Positions 6,951-63,312 of a stretch of 64,000 nucleotides of DNA are shown here, in pieces. The DNA is from Escherichia coli (GTDB lineage: Bacteria; Pseudomonadota; Gammaproteobacteria; Enterobacterales; Enterobacteriaceae). A program made the position numbers and the translations under genes. The stretch lies in the NCBI RefSeq assembly GCF_048403405.1, contig NZ_CP183129.1, one strand, 5' to 3'. The notes below the pieces were generated by a model. It was not told the DNA's origin and made no database searches. It was given only the letters and a program-made list of their open reading frames with translations. Every line of letters starts with the position of its first letter. The stretch's first letter is position 1.

Positions 6951-7140
6951 AAAAGCCGAGGGGCGTCAACCGAAAAATGACCAATGATGGTGAGGAAAAA
7001 TCAGGGAAGTTGAAAAAAACTCATCTTAATTAGAGGCGATAAAAGATTTCTCTATAGCGCAATCCACCTCGCACGTTTTGACTGATATTCTGACAACACA
7101 GCGACACCTGGGCTTATTCGAAAAACAACGTCCTGCCACC

Positions 7141-7200
7141 GGATGGTGATGCTAAGGCATCTGATTCGGCCTGCGCCCTCGCGTAGGCCGAATACTGGAT
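7141..7200. repeat. REP-like palindromic unit (attcggcct-gcgccctcgcgt-aggccgaat)
   Basis: 9 bp perfect inverted repeat, GC-rich, intergenic. Confidence 0.4.
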
Positions 7201-7249
7201 CTGCAAAATCAACTGGTAACAAACAGATGAATCAACTCAATACGTACTT

Positions 7250-8803
7250 TTACTTGATATCTTTCACGCGCATACCGTTGATCTGTTCATCCGTGATGGT
7301 GTTACCCGCTTTGAAGTAATCAACCACGGCGTGATAAACGTAATAACCGCCCGTTGTGTTACGCGCTTTCCCTTCGGTAAAGGCGGTAAAACCATCTCCA
7401 CCATCAGCAAGGAAACTCTGAGTAGCAATGTGGTAAATCGTCGCATCTTCAATGGGTTTGCCATTCAGAGTCAGCGTGATTACCCGCTGACCAACCGGCT
7501 TACTGCTGTCGTACTTCATTTCCAGGCCTTTCGATACCTGTAAAACGCCATTACTTAAACTTGCGCCGTGTTCCATCAAACTGCGTAATTGTTTACCCGT
7601 GAGATCCATCGTCACCAGTTCGTTGGGAAACGGGAAGGTACTGATGACGCCGCCCATCGTAATCGCCCCTGCGGGGATCTCATTGCGAATGCCGCCAGAG
7701 TTGGTTAACGCCAATTGGGTGTTTTTACCCGCCGCTACCAGTAAAGCATCAGCCGCCAGGTTCCCGAGGGAAGCCGATTCACCATAGGCACGTTTTAATT
7801 CAACCGGCGATTTCGCGACCGTTTGTTGCACCACTTCATCAAGCTTTTTATTCCAGCCGTCGATCACCTGTTTTGTTTGCGGATCGGGCTTCCACTCGTC
7901 GGCGTAAATGGTTTTAAGCTCGAAGTTTTTCACCGTAAAATCATGCGGCTTCTCTTTGTAGTCGAGAACCAGTTTGCCCACATCAATCCCGCCGCTGTCA
8001 GTGGAGAGGATGAGCGTATTGCCGACTTTAATCGGTTCCGGCGTACCCACATGCGCATGTCCGGTGATCAAAATATCCAGCCCTTTCACCTGACTTGCCG
8101 TCTGAATATCTTTATCCAGCGCGCGACGCACATCTGTGCCTCCCATACTGGACTGGCGGGCCGGAACACCTTCATGGATCAGGGCGACGGTCAAATCAAC
8201 CTTGCCTTTAAGTTCATCGATATAACGTTGTAGCCATTTAATTTCATCACGCGCTTCAATCCCCACTCGCGTTGCCGCAGATACCGTGTCATTAAAGGCA
8301 AATACACCGTGCAAACCTATAACGCCTATTTTCACGCCGTCTTTTTCGATGATGGTATATGGCTTATCCCAGAATGATTTACTGCTGTTCTGATAAAAAA
8401 CATTGCCCTGCACAATAGGGAATTTTGCCTGACTCAACTGTAATAATGTGTTGTCCCAGCCGTGGTCAAATTCATGGTTGCCTATCGTGACGGCATCAAA
8501 CGGCATAGTATTCATAATATCGATAATAGCCTTACCTTTGGTCAGGCTGCTGATATATGGCCCGGTAAAATAATCACCCGCATCAAAAAACCATGTCGCT
8601 TTATTTTTTGCTTTTTCTTGCTTAACCAGCGTAGTGATATTTGCCCAGCCGCCAATATCCCGTTTACCATCAGCGATCCACGGCACTTTATAAGGCTCGA
8701 CATGCGCATGGAGGTCGTTGGTATAAATGATGGTGACATCTTTGGCGCAAGCCCAAAACGGCAGTGTTAATGCGATACCCGCAGCAAGTATTTTAATTTT
8801 CAT
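7250..8803 (-). CDS. periplasmic bifunctional metallophosphatase/5'-nucleotidase (UshA/YfkN family)
   Basis: 517 aa; signal peptide [20 protein letters not shown]; calcineurin-like motifs NDLHAH, GDYFTG, GNHEFD, GHAH; C-terminal 5'-nucleotidase-like region; RBS aaggga. Confidence 0.8.
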
Positions 8804-12464: not shown

Positions 12465-13625
12465 TTACCCCTTGTTTGCAGCCCGGAAGCCATTTTCCAG
12501 GTCGGCAATTAAATCTTCGCCATCTTCAATACCGGTGGAGATACGCAGCAGCGTCTCTGAGATCCCGGCGGCAGCACGCGCTTCTGGTGCCATGCCTGCA
12601 TGTGTCATGGTTGCGGCGTGAGAGATTAAACTTTCCACTCCCCCTAATGATTCCGCCAGCGTAAACAACGACAGCCCGCCCAGGAAACGACGCAGCGTCT
12701 GCTCATCGCCATCCAGTTCAAAACTCAACATTGCGCCAAAGCCTTTTTGCTGGCGCGCGGCAATTTCATGCCCCTGATTTTCCGGCAGCGACGGGTGATA
12801 CAGTTTTTTCACCAACGGCTGGGTTTGCAGATATTTCACAATCGCCTGCGCGTTGCGCTGGGCCAGCTCCATACGCGGCACCAGAGTTCGCAAACCGCGT
12901 AGCAGCAGATAGCTGTCAAACGCGCCGCCCGTCACGCCAATATTGTTTGCCCACCAGGCCAGTTCGGTGACAACGTCCGGATCTTTAGCAATCACCACGC
13001 CGGCCACCACGTCTGAGTGACCGTTCAGATATTTCGTGCATGAATGCAACACCAGATCGGCACCTAATGCCAGCGGATTTTGTAATGCCGGGCTTAAGAA
13101 GGTGTTATCCACCACACTCACCGCCCCGACTTCCCTTGCCAGATGGCAGATTTTCGCAATATCCACGACGCGTAACAATGGATTACTTGGGCTTTCTACC
13201 AGTATCAGTTTGGGGTTTTCTGCCAGCGCTGCCCGTAATGCCTGTTCATCGCCTTGATCAACAAACAACACGCGATAGCAACCGCGTTTCGCCAGGCTGT
13301 CGAACAGGCGATAGCTACCGCCGTAGCAGTCGTGCGGCGCAACCAGCAGATCGCCAGGTTTCAAAAAGACGGTCGTTACCAGGTGAATCGCGGACATGCC
13401 GGTATTAGTAAGTACGGCACCGGCACCGCCTTCCAGTTCTGCCAGCGCACGCTGAACCACATCGCGCGTTGGGTTGCCACGACGCGAGTAATCATGCGCG
13501 CGCGGTTCATTAAATCCGGTAAAGTTATAGGTGCTGGAAAGATGGATCGGTGGGACAACGCAACCATACTGTTCGTCGTCATTTAACCCGCTACGCACTG
13601 CGATGGTGGCCTGTTTACGCGTCAT
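12465..13625 (-). CDS. metB: cystathionine gamma-synthase
   Basis: ORF 12465..13802 trimmed to ATG 13625 (MTRKQATIAVRSGLNDDEQYG); 386 aa; PLP-dependent; 2 nt upstream of metL. Confidence 0.95.
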   Translation of the reverse strand: MTRKQATIAVRSGLNDDEQYGCVVPPIHLSSTYNFTGFNEPRAHDYSRRGNPTRDVVQRALAELEGGAGAVLTNTGMSAIHLVTTVFLKPGDLLVAPHDCYGGSYRLFDSLAKRGCYRVLFVDQGDEQALRAALAENPKLILVESPSNPLLRVVDIAKICHLAREVGAVSVVDNTFLSPALQNPLALGADLVLHSCTKYLNGHSDVVAGVVIAKDPDVVTELAWWANNIGVTGGAFDSYLLLRGLRTLVPRMELAQRNAQAIVKYLQTQPLVKKLYHPSLPENQGHEIAARQQKGFGAMLSFELDGDEQTLRRFLGGLSLFTLAESLGGVESLISHAATMTHAGMAPEARAAAGISETLLRISTGIEDGEDLIADLENGFRAANKG

Positions 13626-13686
13626 GTGATGAAGTTCCCTGGGCTTGGTCGGTGAAATGTCAGGCACCAGAGTAAACATTGTGTTA

Positions 13687-13720
13687 ATGGACGTCAATAC
13701 ATCTGGACATCTAAACTTCT
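13687..13720. promoter_or_regulatory. metB/metJ divergent operator: tandem met boxes (ggacgtca atacatct ggacatct aaacttct)
   Basis: Four contiguous 8-bp AGACGTCT-like repeats in the metB-metJ intergenic region. Confidence 0.75.
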
Positions 13721-50649: not shown

Positions 50650-51360
50650 TCACAAATAAATATCCTCCGGCATAGCCGGAGGTTTTTCAAATGCGCCTAT
50701 AAGGCTCTCTTACCAGCCGCGCCCTAACAGGCGCACACGATCTGACATTTGCATCCAACTTCGTTACTTACGGCCCGTAAACGGGCTGCCCGGATAGGGA
50801 ATCGATAACTGCTCTCCCATTTTATCCTCTTCAAGCTGGTGCTTTATGTAATCCTGTATCTTCGCCGTGTTCTTACCCACCGTATCGACGTAGTACCCTC
50901 TGCACCAGAACTCCCTGTTCCTGTATTTGAATTTCAAATCACCAAACTGCTCGTAAAGCATCAGACTGCTTTTCCCTTTCAGATATCCCATAAAGCCGGA
51001 TACGCTCATTTTGGGCGGGATCTCCACAAGCATATGGATATGATCTGCACAGCATTCAGCTTCCAGAATCCGTACACTTTTCCACTCACACAGCTTTCTC
51101 AAAATACTGCCTATTGCTCTACGCTTCTCTCTGTAGAACACCTGTCTTCGGTATTTTGGCGCAAAAACTATGTGATATTTACAGTTCCATCGGGTGTGCG
51201 CTAAGCTCTTTTCGTTCCCCATTGGGACCCCCTTTTGATTTCTTGTTTGACACTTGCAGTTGCCAGACCGCAAGGTGTTTTAACAAATCAAAAGGGGTTT
51301 TAATAACTGGCTTAAAGCTGAAAGCTTTCCGGAACCCCCAGCCTAGCTGGGGGTTTTCTG
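50650..51360 (-). mobile_element. IS200-like element (IS200/IS605 family), approximate boundaries
   Basis: Contains IS200-type TnpA; characteristic perfect hairpins cctccggc-ata-gccggagg (50665..50683) and cccccagc-cta-gctggggg (51334..51353) near the ends. Confidence 0.75.
50764..51225 (-). CDS. tnpA: IS200 transposase TnpA (HuH Y1 family)
   Basis: MGNEKSLAHTRWNCKYHIVFAPKYRRQVFYREKRRAIGSILRKLCEWKSVRILEAECCADHIHMLVEIPPK... ; HxH motif; ~153 aa. Confidence 0.9.
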   Translation of the reverse strand, partial: PMGNEKSLAHTRWNCKYHIVFAPKYRRQVFYREKRRAIGSILRKLCEWKSVRILEAECCADHIHMLVEIPPKMSVSGFMGYLKGKSSLMLYEQFGDLKFKYRNREFWCRGYYVDTVGKNTAKIQDYIKHQLEEDKMGEQLSIPYPGSPFTGRK

Positions 51361-51451
51361 TGCACAACAAAAAAACCACCGCCGTTGGCGATGGTTCATT
51401 TTTTAAGCTGATATGCGGCGTAAACGCCTCATTGCAGCAGGCGGCAAATGA

Positions 51452-55146: not shown

Positions 55147-58159
<3,013 letters not shown>

Positions 58160-58163
58160 ACAC

Positions 58164-58290
58164 TGCCTGATGCGGCGCAAGCGCCTTATCCGGCCTACGG
58201 GTCGGCAATAGTTGTAGGCCTGATAAGACGCGACAGCGTCGCATCAGGCATTGATTGCCGGATGCGGCACGAGTGCCTTATCCGGCCTAC
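58164..58290. repeat. REP / BIME cluster (three palindromic units) between rhaA and rhaD
   Basis: gcctgatgcggcgcaagcgccttatccggcctac; gtaggcctgataagacgcgacagcgtcgcatcaggca; gccggatgcggcacgagtgccttatccggcctac. Confidence 0.85.
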
Positions 58291-58343
58291 AGATCGTATA
58301 TCCGGCAACAGGCACGGACGTCCAATTAACAGGAACACAGAAC

Positions 58344-59168
58344 ATGCAAAACATTACCCAGTCCTGGTTTGTCCAGGGAATGATCAAAGCCACCACCGAC
58401 GCCTGGCTGAAAGGCTGGGACGAGCGCAATGGTGGTAACCTGACGCTGCGCCTGGATGACGCCGATATCGCGCCTTATCACGGCAACTTTCATGCACAAC
58501 CGCGCTATATCCCGCTCAGCCAGCCCATGCCTTTACTGGCAAATACACCGTTTATTGTCACCGGCTCCGGCAAATTCTTCCGCAACGTCCAGCTTGATCC
58601 TGCGGCTAACTTAGGCGTCGTAAAAGTCGACAGCGACGGCGCGGGCTACCACATTCTCTGGGGGCTAACTCACGAAGCCGTTCCAACCTCTGAACTTCCG
58701 GCGCACTTCCTCTCTCATTGCGAACGCATTAAAGCCACCAACGGTAAAGATCGGGTGATCATGCACTGCCATGCCACCAACCTGATCGCCCTTACCTACG
58801 TACTGGAAAACGACACCGCGGTCTTCACTCGCCAACTGTGGGAAGGCAGCACCGAATGTCTGGTAGTGTTCCCGGATGGCGTCGGCATTTTGCCGTGGAT
58901 GGTGCCCGGCACCGACGAAATCGGCCAGGCGACCGCACAGGAAATGCAAAAACATTCGCTGGTGTTGTGGCCCTTCCACGGCGTCTTCGGCAGCGGTCCG
59001 ACACTGGATGAAACATTCGGTTTAATCGACACCGCAGAAAAATCAGCACAAGTATTAGTGAAGGCTTATTCGATGGGCGGCATGAAACAGACCATCAGCC
59101 GTGAAGAGCTGATAGCGCTCGGCCAGCGTTTCGGCGTTACACCACTCGCCAGTGCGCTGGCGCTGTAA
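58344..59168 (+). CDS. rhaD: rhamnulose-1-phosphate aldolase
   Basis: ORF 58251..59168 trimmed to ATG 58344 ([25 protein letters not shown]); 274 aa. Confidence 0.95.
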
Positions 59169-59177
59169 GGAGCAAAC

Positions 59178-59492
59178 ATGATCCGCAAAGCCTTTGTCAT
59201 GCAGGTTAACCCCGACGCCCACGAAGAGTATCAGCGTCGGCATAATCCAATCTGGCCGGAACTGGAAGCAGTGTTGAAATCTCACGGTGCGCATAACTAC
59301 GCCATTTACCTCGACAAAGCGCGTAATCTGCTATTTGCCACAGTAGAGATTGAATCTGAAGAACGGTGGAATGCGGTAGCCAGTACTGATGTTTGCCAAC
59401 GTTGGTGGAAATATATGACCGACGTTATGCCAGCTAACCCGGATAACAGCCCAGTCAGTAGCGAGCTGCAAGACGTGTTTTACCTGCCTTAA
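59178..59492 (+). CDS. rhaM: L-rhamnose mutarotase
   Basis: 104 aa [30 protein letters not shown]. Confidence 0.95.
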
Positions 59493-59499
59493 TGAGTTG

Positions 59500-59526
59500 C
59501 GGTGCCGGAAAATATCCAGCACCGCG
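59500..59526. terminator. bidirectional hairpin between convergent rhaM and the porin gene
   Basis: gcggtgc-cggaaaatatcca-gcaccgc. Confidence 0.5.
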
Positions 59527-59532
59527 CCTTCA

Positions 59533-60927
59533 TCAGAAGAAGTATTTAAAGCGAACGCGTGCCCCGTAACGGTCATCAGTATCATCACCGTGTTTTTTAT
59601 CACCGTCGCTATCCAGAATGGAGTAATACGTCCCGAGGTAAATATTAAAGTTCTCCATATCCATCACATTAGCGAACTGATAAGACGCATGAATGGTATG
59701 AATGGTGTACGTCCCTTCATCATCAATCCAGCAGTCGTTATCACAAACTACACCGCTGAATTCATCAATCTTATTGTGCGCGTAGATATAACCGAGCTCG
59801 AAACGTTTCCACAGCGCGTTAATCCCGGCAGTGAAATCTTTCTCATTATTAGCATCTAAATAGGCGGTATTAAGATTAACCACGACGCCATTTTCCGGAT
59901 CCGTTTTCAGGCCATTCCAGGTCATGCTCATACCATAGCCGGTACGATCGGACTGATCGACAAAATTACCCTTGCTATCGGTATAACCATAAGCATTATT
60001 TACCACGTTCGCTTCCATCGCTGCGGAAACGGTGAATTCTTCTGTCGGCGACCAGGCAATTACCGGACGCAGATAAGCAACATTTTTCTGCTGCTCCATA
60101 TCGCGTCCATGATAATTACCGTCATTATATAAAGATGTTCCGTCTTCAAGTAACGTGTTTAATTCAAAATACCAGTTATCGAGTTGTTTGCTGACGAGGA
60201 AATTACCGCCAGCGTTAGAGCGCCCGCGGCCCTCTTTCATCATATAGATATAACCGCTGCCATCGTCATAAAGATCGTTCGCAGTATTACCGGAATGTTC
60301 AACAAAGGTATCCTGATTCAGCGGGAACATATCATAGGCTTCGAAACGACCGACTTTGACCTTCCAGTCATTCTCTTTCCCAAAGAAGAATACCGCGTCA
60401 TCAATATTCACTGAACCGTGCATATCCCCCAGCGGTTGTGCGGAGAACCCGGCGAAATAACCATTATCCAGTTTTCGCATACCATCAAAACCTAACAGAA
60501 TACGACCATTGAGATTCCACTGTTCATTAGTGGGATCGCTATTCACATCAGCGTTGGTCATTGCCAGCAGGCCATGATTACTTTCTGCATCCATATTAAA
60601 TTCTACGTCGCCGTAGATTTTTAAATCGCCATAACCTGAGAGCAAAAGATTAGGTGAGGTGGAATTTTTCTTTGCAGATTCCGCCGTTGCCTGTCCATTT
60701 ACCGGCGTATTGCCCTGGGCAGCCTTAATTTCGCGGATCTCAGCGGCTTGTTGTGTCTGCAGCTGTTTAACCTGGCTCTCTGCTTTTGCTGCCCGCATTT
60801 CTGCCGCTTCCAGGCGTTCTTCCAGCAATGCCATGCGTTGTTCCAGCGTTAAATGCTGTGTTTTTGCCATTCCGGTACTACATGCCAATAATAAACCGAT
60901 GGCTAAAGATAATGTCGATTTTTTCAT
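59533..60927 (-). CDS. outer-membrane beta-barrel porin, probably carbohydrate-selective (LamB/ScrY/OprB-like), with N-terminal coiled-coil extension
   Basis: 464 aa; signal peptide MKKSTLSLAIGLLLACSTGMA; coiled-coil LEQRMALLEERLEAAEMRAAKAESQVKQLQ; C-terminal ...RVRFKYFF (terminal Phe OMP signature); family call is by resemblance only. Confidence 0.65.
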   Translation of the reverse strand: MKKSTLSLAIGLLLACSTGMAKTQHLTLEQRMALLEERLEAAEMRAAKAESQVKQLQTQQAAEIREIKAAQGNTPVNGQATAESAKKNSTSPNLLLSGYGDLKIYGDVEFNMDAESNHGLLAMTNADVNSDPTNEQWNLNGRILLGFDGMRKLDNGYFAGFSAQPLGDMHGSVNIDDAVFFFGKENDWKVKVGRFEAYDMFPLNQDTFVEHSGNTANDLYDDGSGYIYMMKEGRGRSNAGGNFLVSKQLDNWYFELNTLLEDGTSLYNDGNYHGRDMEQQKNVAYLRPVIAWSPTEEFTVSAAMEANVVNNAYGYTDSKGNFVDQSDRTGYGMSMTWNGLKTDPENGVVVNLNTAYLDANNEKDFTAGINALWKRFELGYIYAHNKIDEFSGVVCDNDCWIDDEGTYTIHTIHASYQFANVMDMENFNIYLGTYYSILDSDGDKKHGDDTDDRYGARVRFKYFF

Positions 60928-61403
60928 TATTTACGTTCCCTGAAATAAAAGAGACCCTACGCTTTCCAAAAGGAATACGTATATAGAGAAATATAAGGTG
61001 TGCACTTTCGAATTTTTAATCCAACTTCAGCAGGCCGATGGATAGTATCCCGCTGCATAATATGAGTAAATCCGCTGATTTCCTGGAACGTGAGGAATAT
61101 AACAATAGTGCCGTTTTTAACCAAATATCGTAAAAAATATTAGATATAATTCACGCTGACTCATAAGCCACAAATATAAATAACCTTGCTGCAAAACATG
61201 TGCGGCAGTTAAACATTCACAACATCATTAAATAATGATTTTTTATTCACTGCATTTATTTTTCCCATCAATATGTGCCTTACACCGCAAAATTTATCCT
61301 TCACTCTGCCTTATATTGTCACGACTTCACGACATATCCGCGCTCATCACAAAACCGCCCCGCCGTTACAATTAACTATAATATTTTTTCATGGAGTCCA
61401 ATA

Positions 61404-61850
61404 ATGGCAGCACTTACTGCAAGCTGTATTGACCTGAATATTCAGGGCAATGGCGCTTATTCCGTTCTGAAGCAGTTGGCGACAATGGCGTTACAAAACG
61501 GTTTTATCACCGACTCACACCAGTTCCTGCAAACCCTGCTGCTGCGCGAAAAAATGCACTCCACCGGTTTTGGTTCCGGCATCGCCGTGCCGCACGGTAA
61601 AAGCGCCTGCGTTAAACAACCGTTCGTGTTATTCGCCCGCAAAGCGCAGGCCATTGACTGGAAAGCCAGCGACGGCGAAGACGTCAATTGCTGGATCTGC
61701 CTCGGCGTGCCGCAAAGTGGCGAAGAGGATCAGGTCAAAATCATCGGCACACTGTGTCGCAAAATTATCCACCAGGATTTTATCAACCAACTGCGACAGG
61801 GCGACGCCGACCAGGTGCTTGCTTTGTTAAATCAAACCCTCAGCTCATAA
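61404..61850 (+). CDS. frvA: PTS fructose-like EIIA component
   Basis: ORF 61275..61850 trimmed to ATG 61404 (MAALTASCIDLNIQGNGAYSVLKQLA) with GGAG RBS; 148 aa. Confidence 0.85.
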   Translation: MAALTASCIDLNIQGNGAYSVLKQLATMALQNGFITDSHQFLQTLLLREKMHSTGFGSGIAVPHGKSACVKQPFVLFARKAQAIDWKASDGEDVNCWICLGVPQSGEEDQVKIIGTLCRKIIHQDFINQLRQGDADQVLALLNQTLSS

Positions 61851-61860
61851 GGAAGTGGCG

Positions 61861-63312
61861 ATGGAGTCATCCTTACGTATTGTCGCGATCACCAACTGCC
61901 CCGCCGGGATCGCTCACACCTACATGGTGGCGGAAGCCCTGGAACAGAAAGCCCGTTCTCTCGGTCATACCATTAAAGTTGAAACTCAAGGATCAAGCGG
62001 CGTCGAAAACCGCTTATCCAGCGAAGAGATTGCCGCTGCCGATTACGTGATTTTCGCCACCGGGCGTGGCCTGAGCGGTGACGATCGCGCGCGATTTGCC
62101 GGGAAAATGGTTTATGAGATTGCCATCTCCCAGGCGCTGAAAAATATCGACCAGATTTTCAGTGAATTACCGACAAACTCACAACTTTTTGCCGCAGATA
62201 GCGGCGTGAAGCTCGGCAAACAGGAAGTGCAAAGTGGCAGCGTAATGAGCCATCTGATGGCGGGTGTCTCTGCGGCGCTGCCGTTTGTCATCGGTGGCGG
62301 TATCCTGGTGGCGCTTGCCAACATGCTGGTGCAGTTCGGTTTGCCGTATACCGATATGTCGAAAGGCGCGCCGTCGTTTACCTGGGTGGTTGAATCCATC
62401 GGTTATCTCGGCTTCACCTTTATGATCCCCATCATGGGCGCTTATATTGCCTCGTCGATTGCCGATAAACCCGCTTTCGCTCCGGCGTTTCTGGTTTGCT
62501 ATCTGGCGAATGACAAAGCCCTGCTCGGCACCCAGTCTGGCGCGGGCTTCCTCGGCGCGGTGGTGCTGGGGCTGGCGATTGGCTATTTCGTCTTCTGGTT
62601 CCGTAAAGTGCGCCTTGGCAAAGCATTACAACCGCTGCTCGGTTCCATGCTGATCCCGTTCGTCACTCTGCTGGTTTTCGGCGTACTGACTTACTACGTT
62701 ATCGGACCGGTGATGTCCGACCTCATGGGCGGGTTGCTGCACTTCCTGAACACCATTCCTCCGTCAATGAAGTTTGCGGCAGCGTTTTTGGTCGGTGCGA
62801 TGCTGGCGTTCGATATGGGCGGCCCTATCAATAAAACCGCCTGGTTCTTCTGCTTCTCACTGCTGGAAAAACACATTTACGACTGGTACGCCATCGTCGG
62901 CGTTGTCGCGCTGATGCCGCCTGTCGCGGCGGGTCTTGCGACGTTCATTGCGCCCAAACTGTTTACCCGACAGGAAAAAGAGGCTGCCAGTAGTGCCATT
63001 GTGGTCGGTGCCACAGTCGCAACCGAACCGGCTATTCCTTACGCTCTGGCAGCTCCGTTGCCGATGATTACCGCCAATACGCTGGCGGGCGGTATTACCG
63101 GCGTGCTGGTGATCGCTTTCGGAATCAAACGTCTGGCGCCAGGTTTGGGTATCTTTGACCCGCTGATCGGCCTGATGTCGCCGGTGGGTTCGTTTTATCT
63201 GGTGCTGGCGATTGGCCTCGCGCTGAACATTTCATTCATTATCGTCCTGAAAGGATTATGGTTACGCCGCAAAGCGAAAGCCGCGCAACAGGAGCTTGTC
63301 CATGAACATTGA
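61861..63312 (+). CDS. frvB: PTS fructose-like EIIBC component
   Basis: ATG 61861 (MESSLRIVAITNCPAGIAHTYMVAEALE); 483 aa; EIIB Cys motif NCPAGIAHT; polytopic EIIC. Confidence 0.85.
   Translation: MESSLRIVAITNCPAGIAHTYMVAEALEQKARSLGHTIKVETQGSSGVENRLSSEEIAAADYVIFATGRGLSGDDRARFAGKMVYEIAISQALKNIDQIFSELPTNSQLFAADSGVKLGKQEVQSGSVMSHLMAGVSAALPFVIGGGILVALANMLVQFGLPYTDMSKGAPSFTWVVESIGYLGFTFMIPIMGAYIASSIADKPAFAPAFLVCYLANDKALLGTQSGAGFLGAVVLGLAIGYFVFWFRKVRLGKALQPLLGSMLIPFVTLLVFGVLTYYVIGPVMSDLMGGLLHFLNTIPPSMKFAAAFLVGAMLAFDMGGPINKTAWFFCFSLLEKHIYDWYAIVGVVALMPPVAAGLATFIAPKLFTRQEKEAASSAIVVGATVATEPAIPYALAAPLPMITANTLAGGITGVLVIAFGIKRLAPGLGIFDPLIGLMSPVGSFYLVLAIGLALNISFIIVLKGLWLRRKAKAAQQELVHEH

Follow-up and report, generated by a model that had tools for sequence, protein, structure and literature searches.

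The locus

The window that we analysed is a 64,000-nucleotide stretch of Escherichia coli DNA (assembly GCF_048403405.1, contig NZ_CP183129.1), and the subject of this paper is a complete gene on its minus strand that encodes a porin of 464 residues. RefSeq names the protein 'carbohydrate porin' (WP_000749944.1; E. coli TUM14771, NZ_CP128875.1; 100% identical to the window). The features of the locus, and of the porin gene within it, are the following.

59178..59492, plus strand: rhaM (L-rhamnose mutarotase), conserved neighbour, convergent to the porin gene
59498..59526, no strand assigned: GC-rich hairpin between the convergent rhaM and porin stops, identified from its fold energy against shuffled sequences
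59533..60927, minus strand: RafY-family porin coding sequence, complete, 464 codons plus stop, ATG start, from the listing of open reading frames
59536..60630, minus strand: predicted β-barrel, residues 100-464, with 16 predicted strands, loop L3 and a C-terminal KYFF β-signal
60631..60717, minus strand: flexible, poorly conserved linker, residues 71-99, with pLDDT <50 at residues 72-96
60718..60846, minus strand: predicted periplasmic helix with heptad repeat, residues 28-70 (AlphaFold2 helix, pLDDT ~86-88)
60865..60927, minus strand: predicted signal peptide, residues 1-21 (MKKSTLSLAIGLLLACSTGMA), read from the sequence, with probable cleavage before KTQ
60928..61403, no strand assigned: AT-rich control region, the divergent spacer between porin and frvA, 476 bp, 0.35 GC
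61075..61135, minus strand: candidate regulatory patch ~150-210 bp before the ATG, the sole upstream patch conserved with Citrobacter orthologues
61404..61850, plus strand: frvA (PTS fructose-like IIA), neighbour, divergent from the porin gene

The original prediction had the porin gene convergent to rhaM and upstream of the frv genes, behind an AT-rich spacer, and this is indeed the arrangement: 40 bp lie between the stop codons of rhaM and the porin gene, and the 476 bp on the other side are at 35% GC, against 0.52-0.58 in the flanks. The porin gene itself has a GC content of 0.45 where its flanks have 0.53. The hairpin between the two stops is very stable, with fold energies of -20.9 kcal/mol on the plus strand and -27.2 kcal/mol on the minus strand (z = -5.3 and -6.9), and 0 of 200 shuffled sequences were equally stable. 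It resembles a bidirectional terminator, though it has no U-tract, and a role as terminator is putative. Because the porin gene converges on rhaM and this hairpin stands between their stops, we do not expect the two genes to be co-transcribed. A search of Rfam over 59300..61500 returned no match.

Family and predicted fold of the barrel

By its sequence, the porin belongs to the RafY glycoporins (Porin_8, TCDB 1.B.15), here encoded on the chromosome. The Pfam profile Porin_8, 'Porin-like glycoporin RafY' (PF16966), aligns from end to end (model positions 1-372 of 372) with residues 104-464 at E = 3.7e-154, and the same profile is matched by all 56 of the 56 aligned relatives. This match, together with a dN/dS of 0.02-0.04 against other E. 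coli alleles, tells us that the open reading frame is not a chance one. The family is small, with 233 representatives (50% clustering) at E <= 1e-3 among 1.84 billion proteins, and many of its distant members, of 350-390 residues, are without the N-terminal extension discussed below. NCBIfam has no family model for the porin, and searches of the PDB by sequence and by profile found no detectable homologue.

An AlphaFold2 monomer model, computed from a 56-sequence alignment (mean pLDDT 81, pTM 0.71), predicts 16 β-strands joined by short periplasmic turns, of which β5 and β6 are connected by a long loop (residues 195-240) that is highly conserved and occupies the topological place of the classical porin constriction loop L3. 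The barrel body is rich in Asn, Asp, Gly and Tyr, and the C-terminus reads ...RFKYFF. The earlier description, a porin of 464 residues in the outer membrane that has a signal peptide and a β-barrel and ends in Phe, thus agrees with both the Porin_8 match and the 16-stranded model, which also served as the β-barrel check that had been proposed. The candidate families named alongside that description fared differently: the Pfam search gave no match to LamB (PF02264), OprB (PF04966) or KdgM (PF06178), and Porin_8/RafY was found instead. KdgM is a 12-stranded barrel of ~230 residues; the mature porin of the window has 443, and 16 strands are predicted for it.

Could the porin nevertheless be a substrate-specific channel of the LamB/ScrY class, with an 18-stranded barrel, a greasy slide and saturable sugar binding? 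It has an N-terminal extension like that of ScrY, the PGAP name 'carbohydrate porin' would fit such a channel, and in an analysis based on TCDB the RafY family falls beside the sugar porin family (TCDB 1.B.3). However, the LamB profile does not match and 16 strands are predicted, not 18, so that we hold membership in this class to be very improbable. The AlphaFold model is nearest to the trimeric porins OprP and DcaP, with lower scores for ScrY and LamB.

Signal peptide, N-terminal helix and linker

Around the predicted cleavage site of the signal peptide, the orthologues share the conserved motif TG[MF]A|KT. We considered whether the protein might be a lipoprotein, as the string LLLAC resembles a lipobox, but the orthologues do not conserve Cys16 (Citrobacter has LLLVANTGFA|KT), and for this reason we read residues 1-21 as an ordinary SPase-I signal peptide with no lipobox.

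Near the start of the mature protein a helix is predicted, and the coiled coil of about 45 residues that had been forecast corresponds well to it: residues 28-70 (43 residues) carry an unbroken a/d heptad core made up of L28, M32, L35, L39, A42, A46, A49, V53 and L56, in a charged segment rich in alanine and glutamine. The linker that joins helix and barrel is of low complexity and differs in length among orthologues; the B2 allele of the porin is 7 residues shorter overall. We presume that the N-terminal helices form a trimeric coiled coil, where the trimer is taken by analogy with ScrY and DcaP, the model itself being that of a monomer.

Against the window porin alone, the Pfam profile Sugarporin_N (PF11471, 'Maltoporin periplasmic N-terminal extension') scores below threshold, with E = 0.06 over residues 27-54. 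Among the 56 aligned relatives, though, it is found at E <= 1e-3 in 13 and at E <= 0.1 in 29, and the motif (T/S)(L/I)EQRLxxLExRLxxAExRA is common to their N-terminal extensions. At the level of the family, then, the extension very likely is homologous to the ScrY-type Sugarporin_N module. The likeness to ScrY that had been noted for the coiled-coil extension consequently very likely holds for this module, on the strength of those relatives. It does not extend to the barrel, which is of the Porin_8/RafY type with 16 predicted strands and whose family the module does not decide. Both domain names, Porin_8 family and Sugarporin_N, already stand on some database entries.

The rhaM junction across genera

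A scan with one genome per species yielded 382 relatives, and the neighbourhoods of the best 80 of these 382 were classified by tblastn. The nearest homologues outside E. coli, in Citrobacter and Kluyvera, are 83-85% identical, and in Citrobacter species, including C. rodentium, the porin gene converges on rhaM just as it does in the window. Within the best 80 of the 382 loci, the porin|rhaM junction is kept in nearly all of those with at least 67% identity, the exceptions being two Enterobacter loci and a few loci ended by a contig edge. The genera with this junction include Citrobacter, Kluyvera, Klebsiella, Raoultella, Pseudocitrobacter, Superficieibacter and Trabulsiella among others, and altogether the arrangement occurs in at least 10 other enterobacterial genera, at ~30 loci outside E. 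coli. Identity among the rhaM-linked loci is 70-85%, a range typical of orthologues. The best 80 of the 382 loci, which reach down to 57% identity, include no representative of E. albertii, E. fergusonii or Salmonella.

The other side of the porin gene is far more variable. In E. coli and in one Trabulsiella locus (L037), frvA lies directly upstream of the porin, and this adjacency is not conserved beyond these two. In Citrobacter and Kluyvera the upstream position is taken by an HTH/cupin regulator and azlCD, often with frvAB beyond them. The comparison of the rhaM|frvA junction that had been suggested as a check hence gives a divided answer, as the rhaM side is conserved across genera and the frvA side is not. 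The neighbours that do recur in the same orientation as the porin are raf genes, which encode an α-galactosidase, a LacY-type permease and a LacI-type repressor. For example, Klebsiella sp. B345 has, in order, a LacI-type regulator, a GH36 α-galactosidase, a LacY-type permease, the porin and the convergent rhaM. In five loci (L010, L021, L022, L027 and L028) rafR-rafA-rafB adjoin the porin upstream, in three more (L031, L035 and L050) raf genes are found at a greater distance from it, and in Enterobacter loci L025 and L034 the porin stands ahead of rafR-rafA-rafB. For the clade of the porin and its paralogues, linkage to operons for oligosaccharides is conserved; besides raf, these operons comprise one that pairs a LacY-like permease and GH32 and one that combines GH13, GH130 and DUF1861 with an ABC transporter. 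As to the history of the raf genes at this junction, rafRAB may have been lost in E. coli and Citrobacter, or else may have been gained in Klebsiella.

In every genus that we examined, the porin gene has a GC content 3-10 points under that of its flanks. We therefore regard the low GC as a trait of the family and not as the signature of a recent import.

Presence and loss in E. coli

Among 5426 complete E. coli genomes, 2557 carry the porin coding sequence at 80% of its length or more; O157:H7, strain 536 and the B-lineage strain T7Express are among the carriers. K-12 has no such gene, as had been suggested: its rhaM-frvA spacer measures only 300 bp and contains no porin, in a genome where the rha and frv loci are complete. 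Homology with K-12 restarts at 61269, and 60928..61268 has no K-12 counterpart. The K-12 state is no clean deletion: in place of 59494..61268 (~1.77 kb) it has ~165 bp of unrelated AT-rich sequence, and this filler matches neither the window nor any other locus that we compared. Other E. coli strains have independent IS1-linked truncations that leave 3' stubs of 75 bp or 249 bp beside rhaM, and in one strain an IS1 sits within the porin gene. At the borders of the porin indel in the window we looked for direct or inverted repeats, an integrase, IS elements and mobility genes and found none, apart from short chance matches. B2 strains have the porin and no frvABXR. We also considered an ancient balanced presence/absence polymorphism on the basis of the divergence of the flanks, and we dropped it when the flanks proved equally divergent between porin-positive strains.

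These observations bear on the direction of change at the locus. Since the same junction recurs across genera, the borders are free of repeats, and IS1 has truncated the gene independently in other strains, the comparison of sequences indicates that the porin is ancestral at the rhaM junction and that the K-12 state is a loss. For the same reasons the gene can no longer be described as 'inserted' between rhaM and frvA, as it originally was.

An acquisition may still be envisaged in the form of a recent, horizontally acquired islet, for instance one derived from a raf plasmid. The GC of the gene (0.45) and of its upstream region (0.35) below the 0.53 of the flanks, the presence of the porin in some E. 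coli and its absence from others, the existence of a plasmid copy with 79% identity, and the absence of E. albertii, E. fergusonii and Salmonella from the best 80 of the 382 loci could all be understood in this way. Yet a recent islet would not be expected to hold the same position and orientation beside rhaM in many genera at 70-85% identity, and the GC deficit is common to all of these genera. Moreover, the borders lack repeats, integrase and IS, the plasmid copy differs in its signal peptide and reaches no more than 79% identity, and the alleles within E. coli are deeply divergent, with dS of 0.12-0.42. We thus judge a recent islet to be quite unlikely and retain the ancestral rhaM-linked gene.

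The same data address the proposal that the porin serves its neighbours, that is, that it is a recently inserted, dedicated uptake channel for the rhamnose genes or the cryptic frv PTS operon. What makes this proposal attractive is that the porin adjoins both rhaM and frvA, that its adjacency to rhaM is conserved over many genera, and that it has an AT-rich divergent control region in common with frvA. The orientation, however, is convergent to rhaM with the very stable hairpin between the stops, azlCD and the HTH regulator separate porin and frvA in Citrobacter and Kluyvera, and the B2 strains have the porin where they have no frvABXR. Conversely, K-12 has complete rha and frv loci where it has no porin. 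The recurrent neighbours of the same orientation are raf genes, neither rha nor frv, and no signature of insertion is seen at the borders. Rhamnose and other monosaccharides, furthermore, pass through general porins. In view of all this, a dedicated rhamnose or frv channel seems highly unlikely to us, and the original suggestion to that effect gives way to an association with raf genes.

Selection and the upstream region

In E. coli the porin is under strong purifying selection. Nei-Gojobori estimates of dN/dS are 0.038 against the B2 allele (dS 0.28), 0.017 against strain E69 (dS 0.42) and 0.029 against Escherichia sp. MOD1-EC7003, and against other genera the ratio is 0.04-0.07. These values matter for the question of whether the gene is only the decaying remnant, now without function, of a raf cluster that was lost. 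Such a remnant might be suspected from the lack of rafRAB at the E. coli locus, from the loss of the gene in about half of the strains and its disruption by IS1 in some, and from a promoter scan that gave nothing clear. But neutral decay could not produce a dN/dS of 0.02-0.04 at dS up to 0.28-0.42, 2557 genomes have an uninterrupted reading frame, and the orphan state is also kept in Citrobacter and Kluyvera. The porin is therefore not a decaying remnant as far as dN/dS can tell, and we rate that reading as extremely unlikely when set beside a selected, ancestral rafY.

Upstream of the gene, the scan for promoters gave 3 matches where 4.9 were expected by chance, and we assign no promoter. The porin-frvA spacer holds no protein remnants of the raf (rafA, rafB), azl (azlC) or HTH regulator genes. 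The candidate regulatory patch at 61075..61135 is 77% identical to Citrobacter (blastn and alignment), and within it, at 61089..61104, lies a CRP-like half-palindrome, TGTTA-N6-TCACG, with 2 mismatches. Across the window, CRP-like matches number 29 against 24.7 expected, which is no excess over chance, so that it is conservation that makes this site a candidate, and we offer it as only a lead.

A separate observation concerns the presumed 5' UTR, where a small inverted repeat at 60958..60981 is conserved, with one compensating change; its fold is unexceptional (z = -1.3).

Proposed function and significance

The porin as such is already known: Pfam and TCDB curate its family, and thousands of RefSeq genomes carry an annotation of the gene. 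According to papers that cite Ulmke et al. 1997, RafY raises the uptake of raffinose, sucrose and maltose. In O157:H7 genomes a homologue of the porin is annotated 'rafY2', and rafY2 and lacY are listed as key genes of raffinose use in O157:H7 (PMC4809568). In a set of E. coli isolates, rafY was found in 45 and the complete operon in only 23, with orphan rafY without rafABD (PMC12987596), and the RafY of K. pneumoniae is under test as a vaccine antigen. Our literature search, for which most subscription journals were out of reach, found no experiment on the rhaM-linked chromosomal rafY.

How might such a protein work? After removal of the signal peptide, the mature protein of 443 residues would enter the outer membrane and there form a 16-stranded β-barrel that loop L3 constricts from inside. 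It would most likely form a trimer, by analogy with structurally similar porins, in which the three N-terminal heptad helices would assemble into a periplasmic coiled coil like those of ScrY and DcaP, stabilising the trimer and possibly guiding sugars. The channel would allow passive diffusion of oligosaccharides too bulky for OmpF/OmpC, such as raffinose-family α-galactosides, sucrose and maltodextrins, which would then be handed over in the periplasm to inner-membrane permeases. Diffusion of oligosaccharides such as raffinose across the outer membrane is thus the likely function that we predict for the porin. From a member of the RafY family one would expect a wide pore that lets in raffinose, stachyose and maltodextrins. 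As to its evolution, the porin of the window is the E. coli orthologue of one found convergent to rhaM throughout the Enterobacteriaceae. Klebsiella, Raoultella and some Enterobacter have it at the end of a chromosomal rafR-rafA-rafB-rafY cluster; the gene of E. coli, Citrobacter and Kluyvera is an orphan rafY, which K-12 and roughly half of E. coli have lost. Taken as a whole, this picture of a RafY-family glycoporin, encoded by an ancestral orphan rafY and mediating passive diffusion of oligosaccharides, is the best explanation of our data, and we hold it with considerable confidence.

One may ask why an orphan rafY should have been kept. It is conceivable, though unlikely, that it has been kept for more than the service of a raffinose operon, for example for a broad entry of oligosaccharides and other large solutes together with LacY or MelB-type permeases in guts rich in plant fibre, and that a cost of carriage, as a receptor for phage or colicin or as a route of antibiotic entry, maintains the polymorphism. 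If this broader role were true, the conserved CRP-like site and the 5'-UTR hairpin would mark a specific control circuit.

What our analysis adds is a corrected picture, in which the gene appears as an ancestral, rhaM-linked orthologue of RafY that has been lost in K-12. Because it is absent from K-12, the gene has so far eluded experiments. Carriers such as O157:H7, ExPEC (e.g. 536) and the laboratory strains of the B lineage may differ from K-12 in the permeability of their outer membrane to oligosaccharides, and perhaps also to large hydrophilic drugs.

Comparison with known systems

The closest characterised system is the plasmid-borne RafY at the end of the rafR-rafA-rafB-rafD operon, which is also 464 residues long and is 79% identical to the window porin over residues 15-464, with 87% positives over 450 residues; the copy that we compared comes from such an operon and not from pRSD2 itself. 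More generally, homologues of the porin on E. coli plasmids have 86% nucleotide identity, and one plasmid cluster closed by rafY consists of a LacI-type regulator, an α-galactosidase, an MFS permease and a GH32 hydrolase, which is the classical rafR-rafA-rafB-rafD-rafY order. The two proteins share the N-terminal LTLEQRMALLEERLEAAE helix, the barrel, a CxxxC loop and the ...RFKYFF end, whereas their signal peptides differ and their linkers have diverged. Unlike the plasmid gene, the gene of the window is chromosomal and stands alone, convergent to rhaM and without rafR, rafA, rafB or rafD. Linkage to raf genes characterises the founding member of the family, and membership by sequence does not depend on it. 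As there is no rafR at the locus of the window, regulation of the porin there cannot involve RafR.

On the chromosome, the nearest parallel is provided by the rafR-rafA-rafB-rafY clusters of Klebsiella, Raoultella and Enterobacter species (L010, L021, L022, L027), whose orthologous porin is 74-76% identical and has the same rhaM junction. These clusters carry the LacI-type repressor, the GH36 α-galactosidase and the LacY-type permease upstream in the same orientation, where E. coli has the divergent frvA.

Beyond the family, two porins resemble that of the window in their general design. ScrY, of the LamB family (PDB 1A0S), has a periplasmic coiled-coil extension of the Sugarporin_N type, which the window porin very likely has too, and takes part in the uptake of oligosaccharides, as we predict for the window porin. 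DcaP of Acinetobacter baumannii (PDB 6EUS) is the most similar in overall architecture: a coiled coil of ~49 residues is joined through a disordered linker to a trimeric porin of 16 strands. The coil of DcaP has been reported to stabilise the trimer, and that of ScrY has been proposed to be a periplasmic sugar guide (bioRxiv 10.1101/306035; PMC6173795). DcaP and the window porin, however, share only 11% sequence identity and belong to different families, and DcaP is anion-selective for dicarboxylates and no sugar channel.

Results

Where the porin region would stand, the rhaM-frvA spacer of K-12 (L003 1894..2060) carries ~165 bp of AT-rich DNA. Since this filler has no match in the window or among the 90+ comparison loci, we conclude that the K-12 state is a replacement rather than a clean deletion. 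In E. coli HS30-1 (L095 2501..3290) and SL124 (L096 2934..3896), 3' stubs of the porin, of 75 bp and 249 bp respectively, abut IS1 copies, and frv genes are deleted too; the two stubs are independent IS1-mediated losses. Strain EC09 (match H42 in the survey of complete E. coli genomes for the porin coding sequence) has the gene interrupted by an internal IS1. Seattle 1946 (ATCC 25922, probably of phylogroup B2) retains a 457-aa allele of the porin, with an N-terminal region shorter by 7 aa. In its annotated region (L004 6434..8715) frvA, frvB, frvX and frvR are entirely absent, and the DNA upstream of the porin leads into a truncated DUF3829 (YiiG-family) pseudogene, with fdhD beyond it.

Comparison of window 58000..63000 with four loci (L092, L004, L013 and L020) gives a between-strain E. 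coli nucleotide identity of 0.83-0.95 around rhaD-rhaM-porin-frv, down from 0.97-0.99 at a distance of a few kb. The dip appears alike in comparisons with and without the porin, and thus marks a local diversity hot spot rather than a signal tied to the indel.

A segment of ~700 bp between kdgT and sodA (50661..51366) is missing in K-12 and contains an ORF for a putative Y1 transposase of the IS200/IS605 type. Downstream of frvR, the annotation of TUM14771, the source strain, lists yiiG as a pseudogene with a frameshift and a truncated N-terminus.

50764..51273, minus strand: 169-aa ORF in the kdgT-sodA segment, including …HTRWNCKYHIVFAPKYRR…
L001 (TUM14771) 13077..13719, just past the right end of the window: yiiG pseudogene, from the annotation

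Upstream of the porin, the sole patch conserved with the Citrobacter orthologues is window 61075..61135. Inside it, at 61089..61104, lies a CRP-like sequence, TGTTATATTCCTCACG, with 2 mismatches; across the window, CRP-like matches with 2 mismatches occur at the frequency expected by chance. Nearer to the gene is an inverted repeat that Citrobacter shares apart from a single compensating change, from U·G to U-A; the predicted fold of the repeat is unexceptional (z = -1.3).

60958..60981, minus strand: inverted repeat CGTATTCC-TTTT-GGAAAGCG, ~30-55 nt before the porin start codon (ATG)

The protein itself has a CxxxC pair that plasmid RafY keeps as VVCNNGCW, and a similar Cys pair is present in an epitope listing for K. 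pneumoniae RafY. The two cysteines could form a loop disulfide.

59731..59745, minus strand: CxxxC pair, residues C395 and C399 (VVCDNDCW), in predicted extracellular loop L7

Discussion

How do these observations compare with related porins in other genera? A paralogous Porin_8 clade, 57-64% identical (L069-L071, L074, L085, L088, and L093/L094 at 7001..8395), supplies the terminal gene in other operons for oligosaccharides. The genes before it encode a LacY-like permease and a GH32 enzyme in Klebsiella and Raoultella, and an ABC transporter, GH13, GH130 and DUF1861 in Buttiauxella. Two Enterobacter loci (L025 and L034), where rhaM is not nearby, have the order frvB-frvA, porin, and then rafR-rafA-rafB downstream of the porin, a layout that is a third, independent mode of linkage between the porin clade and the raf genes.
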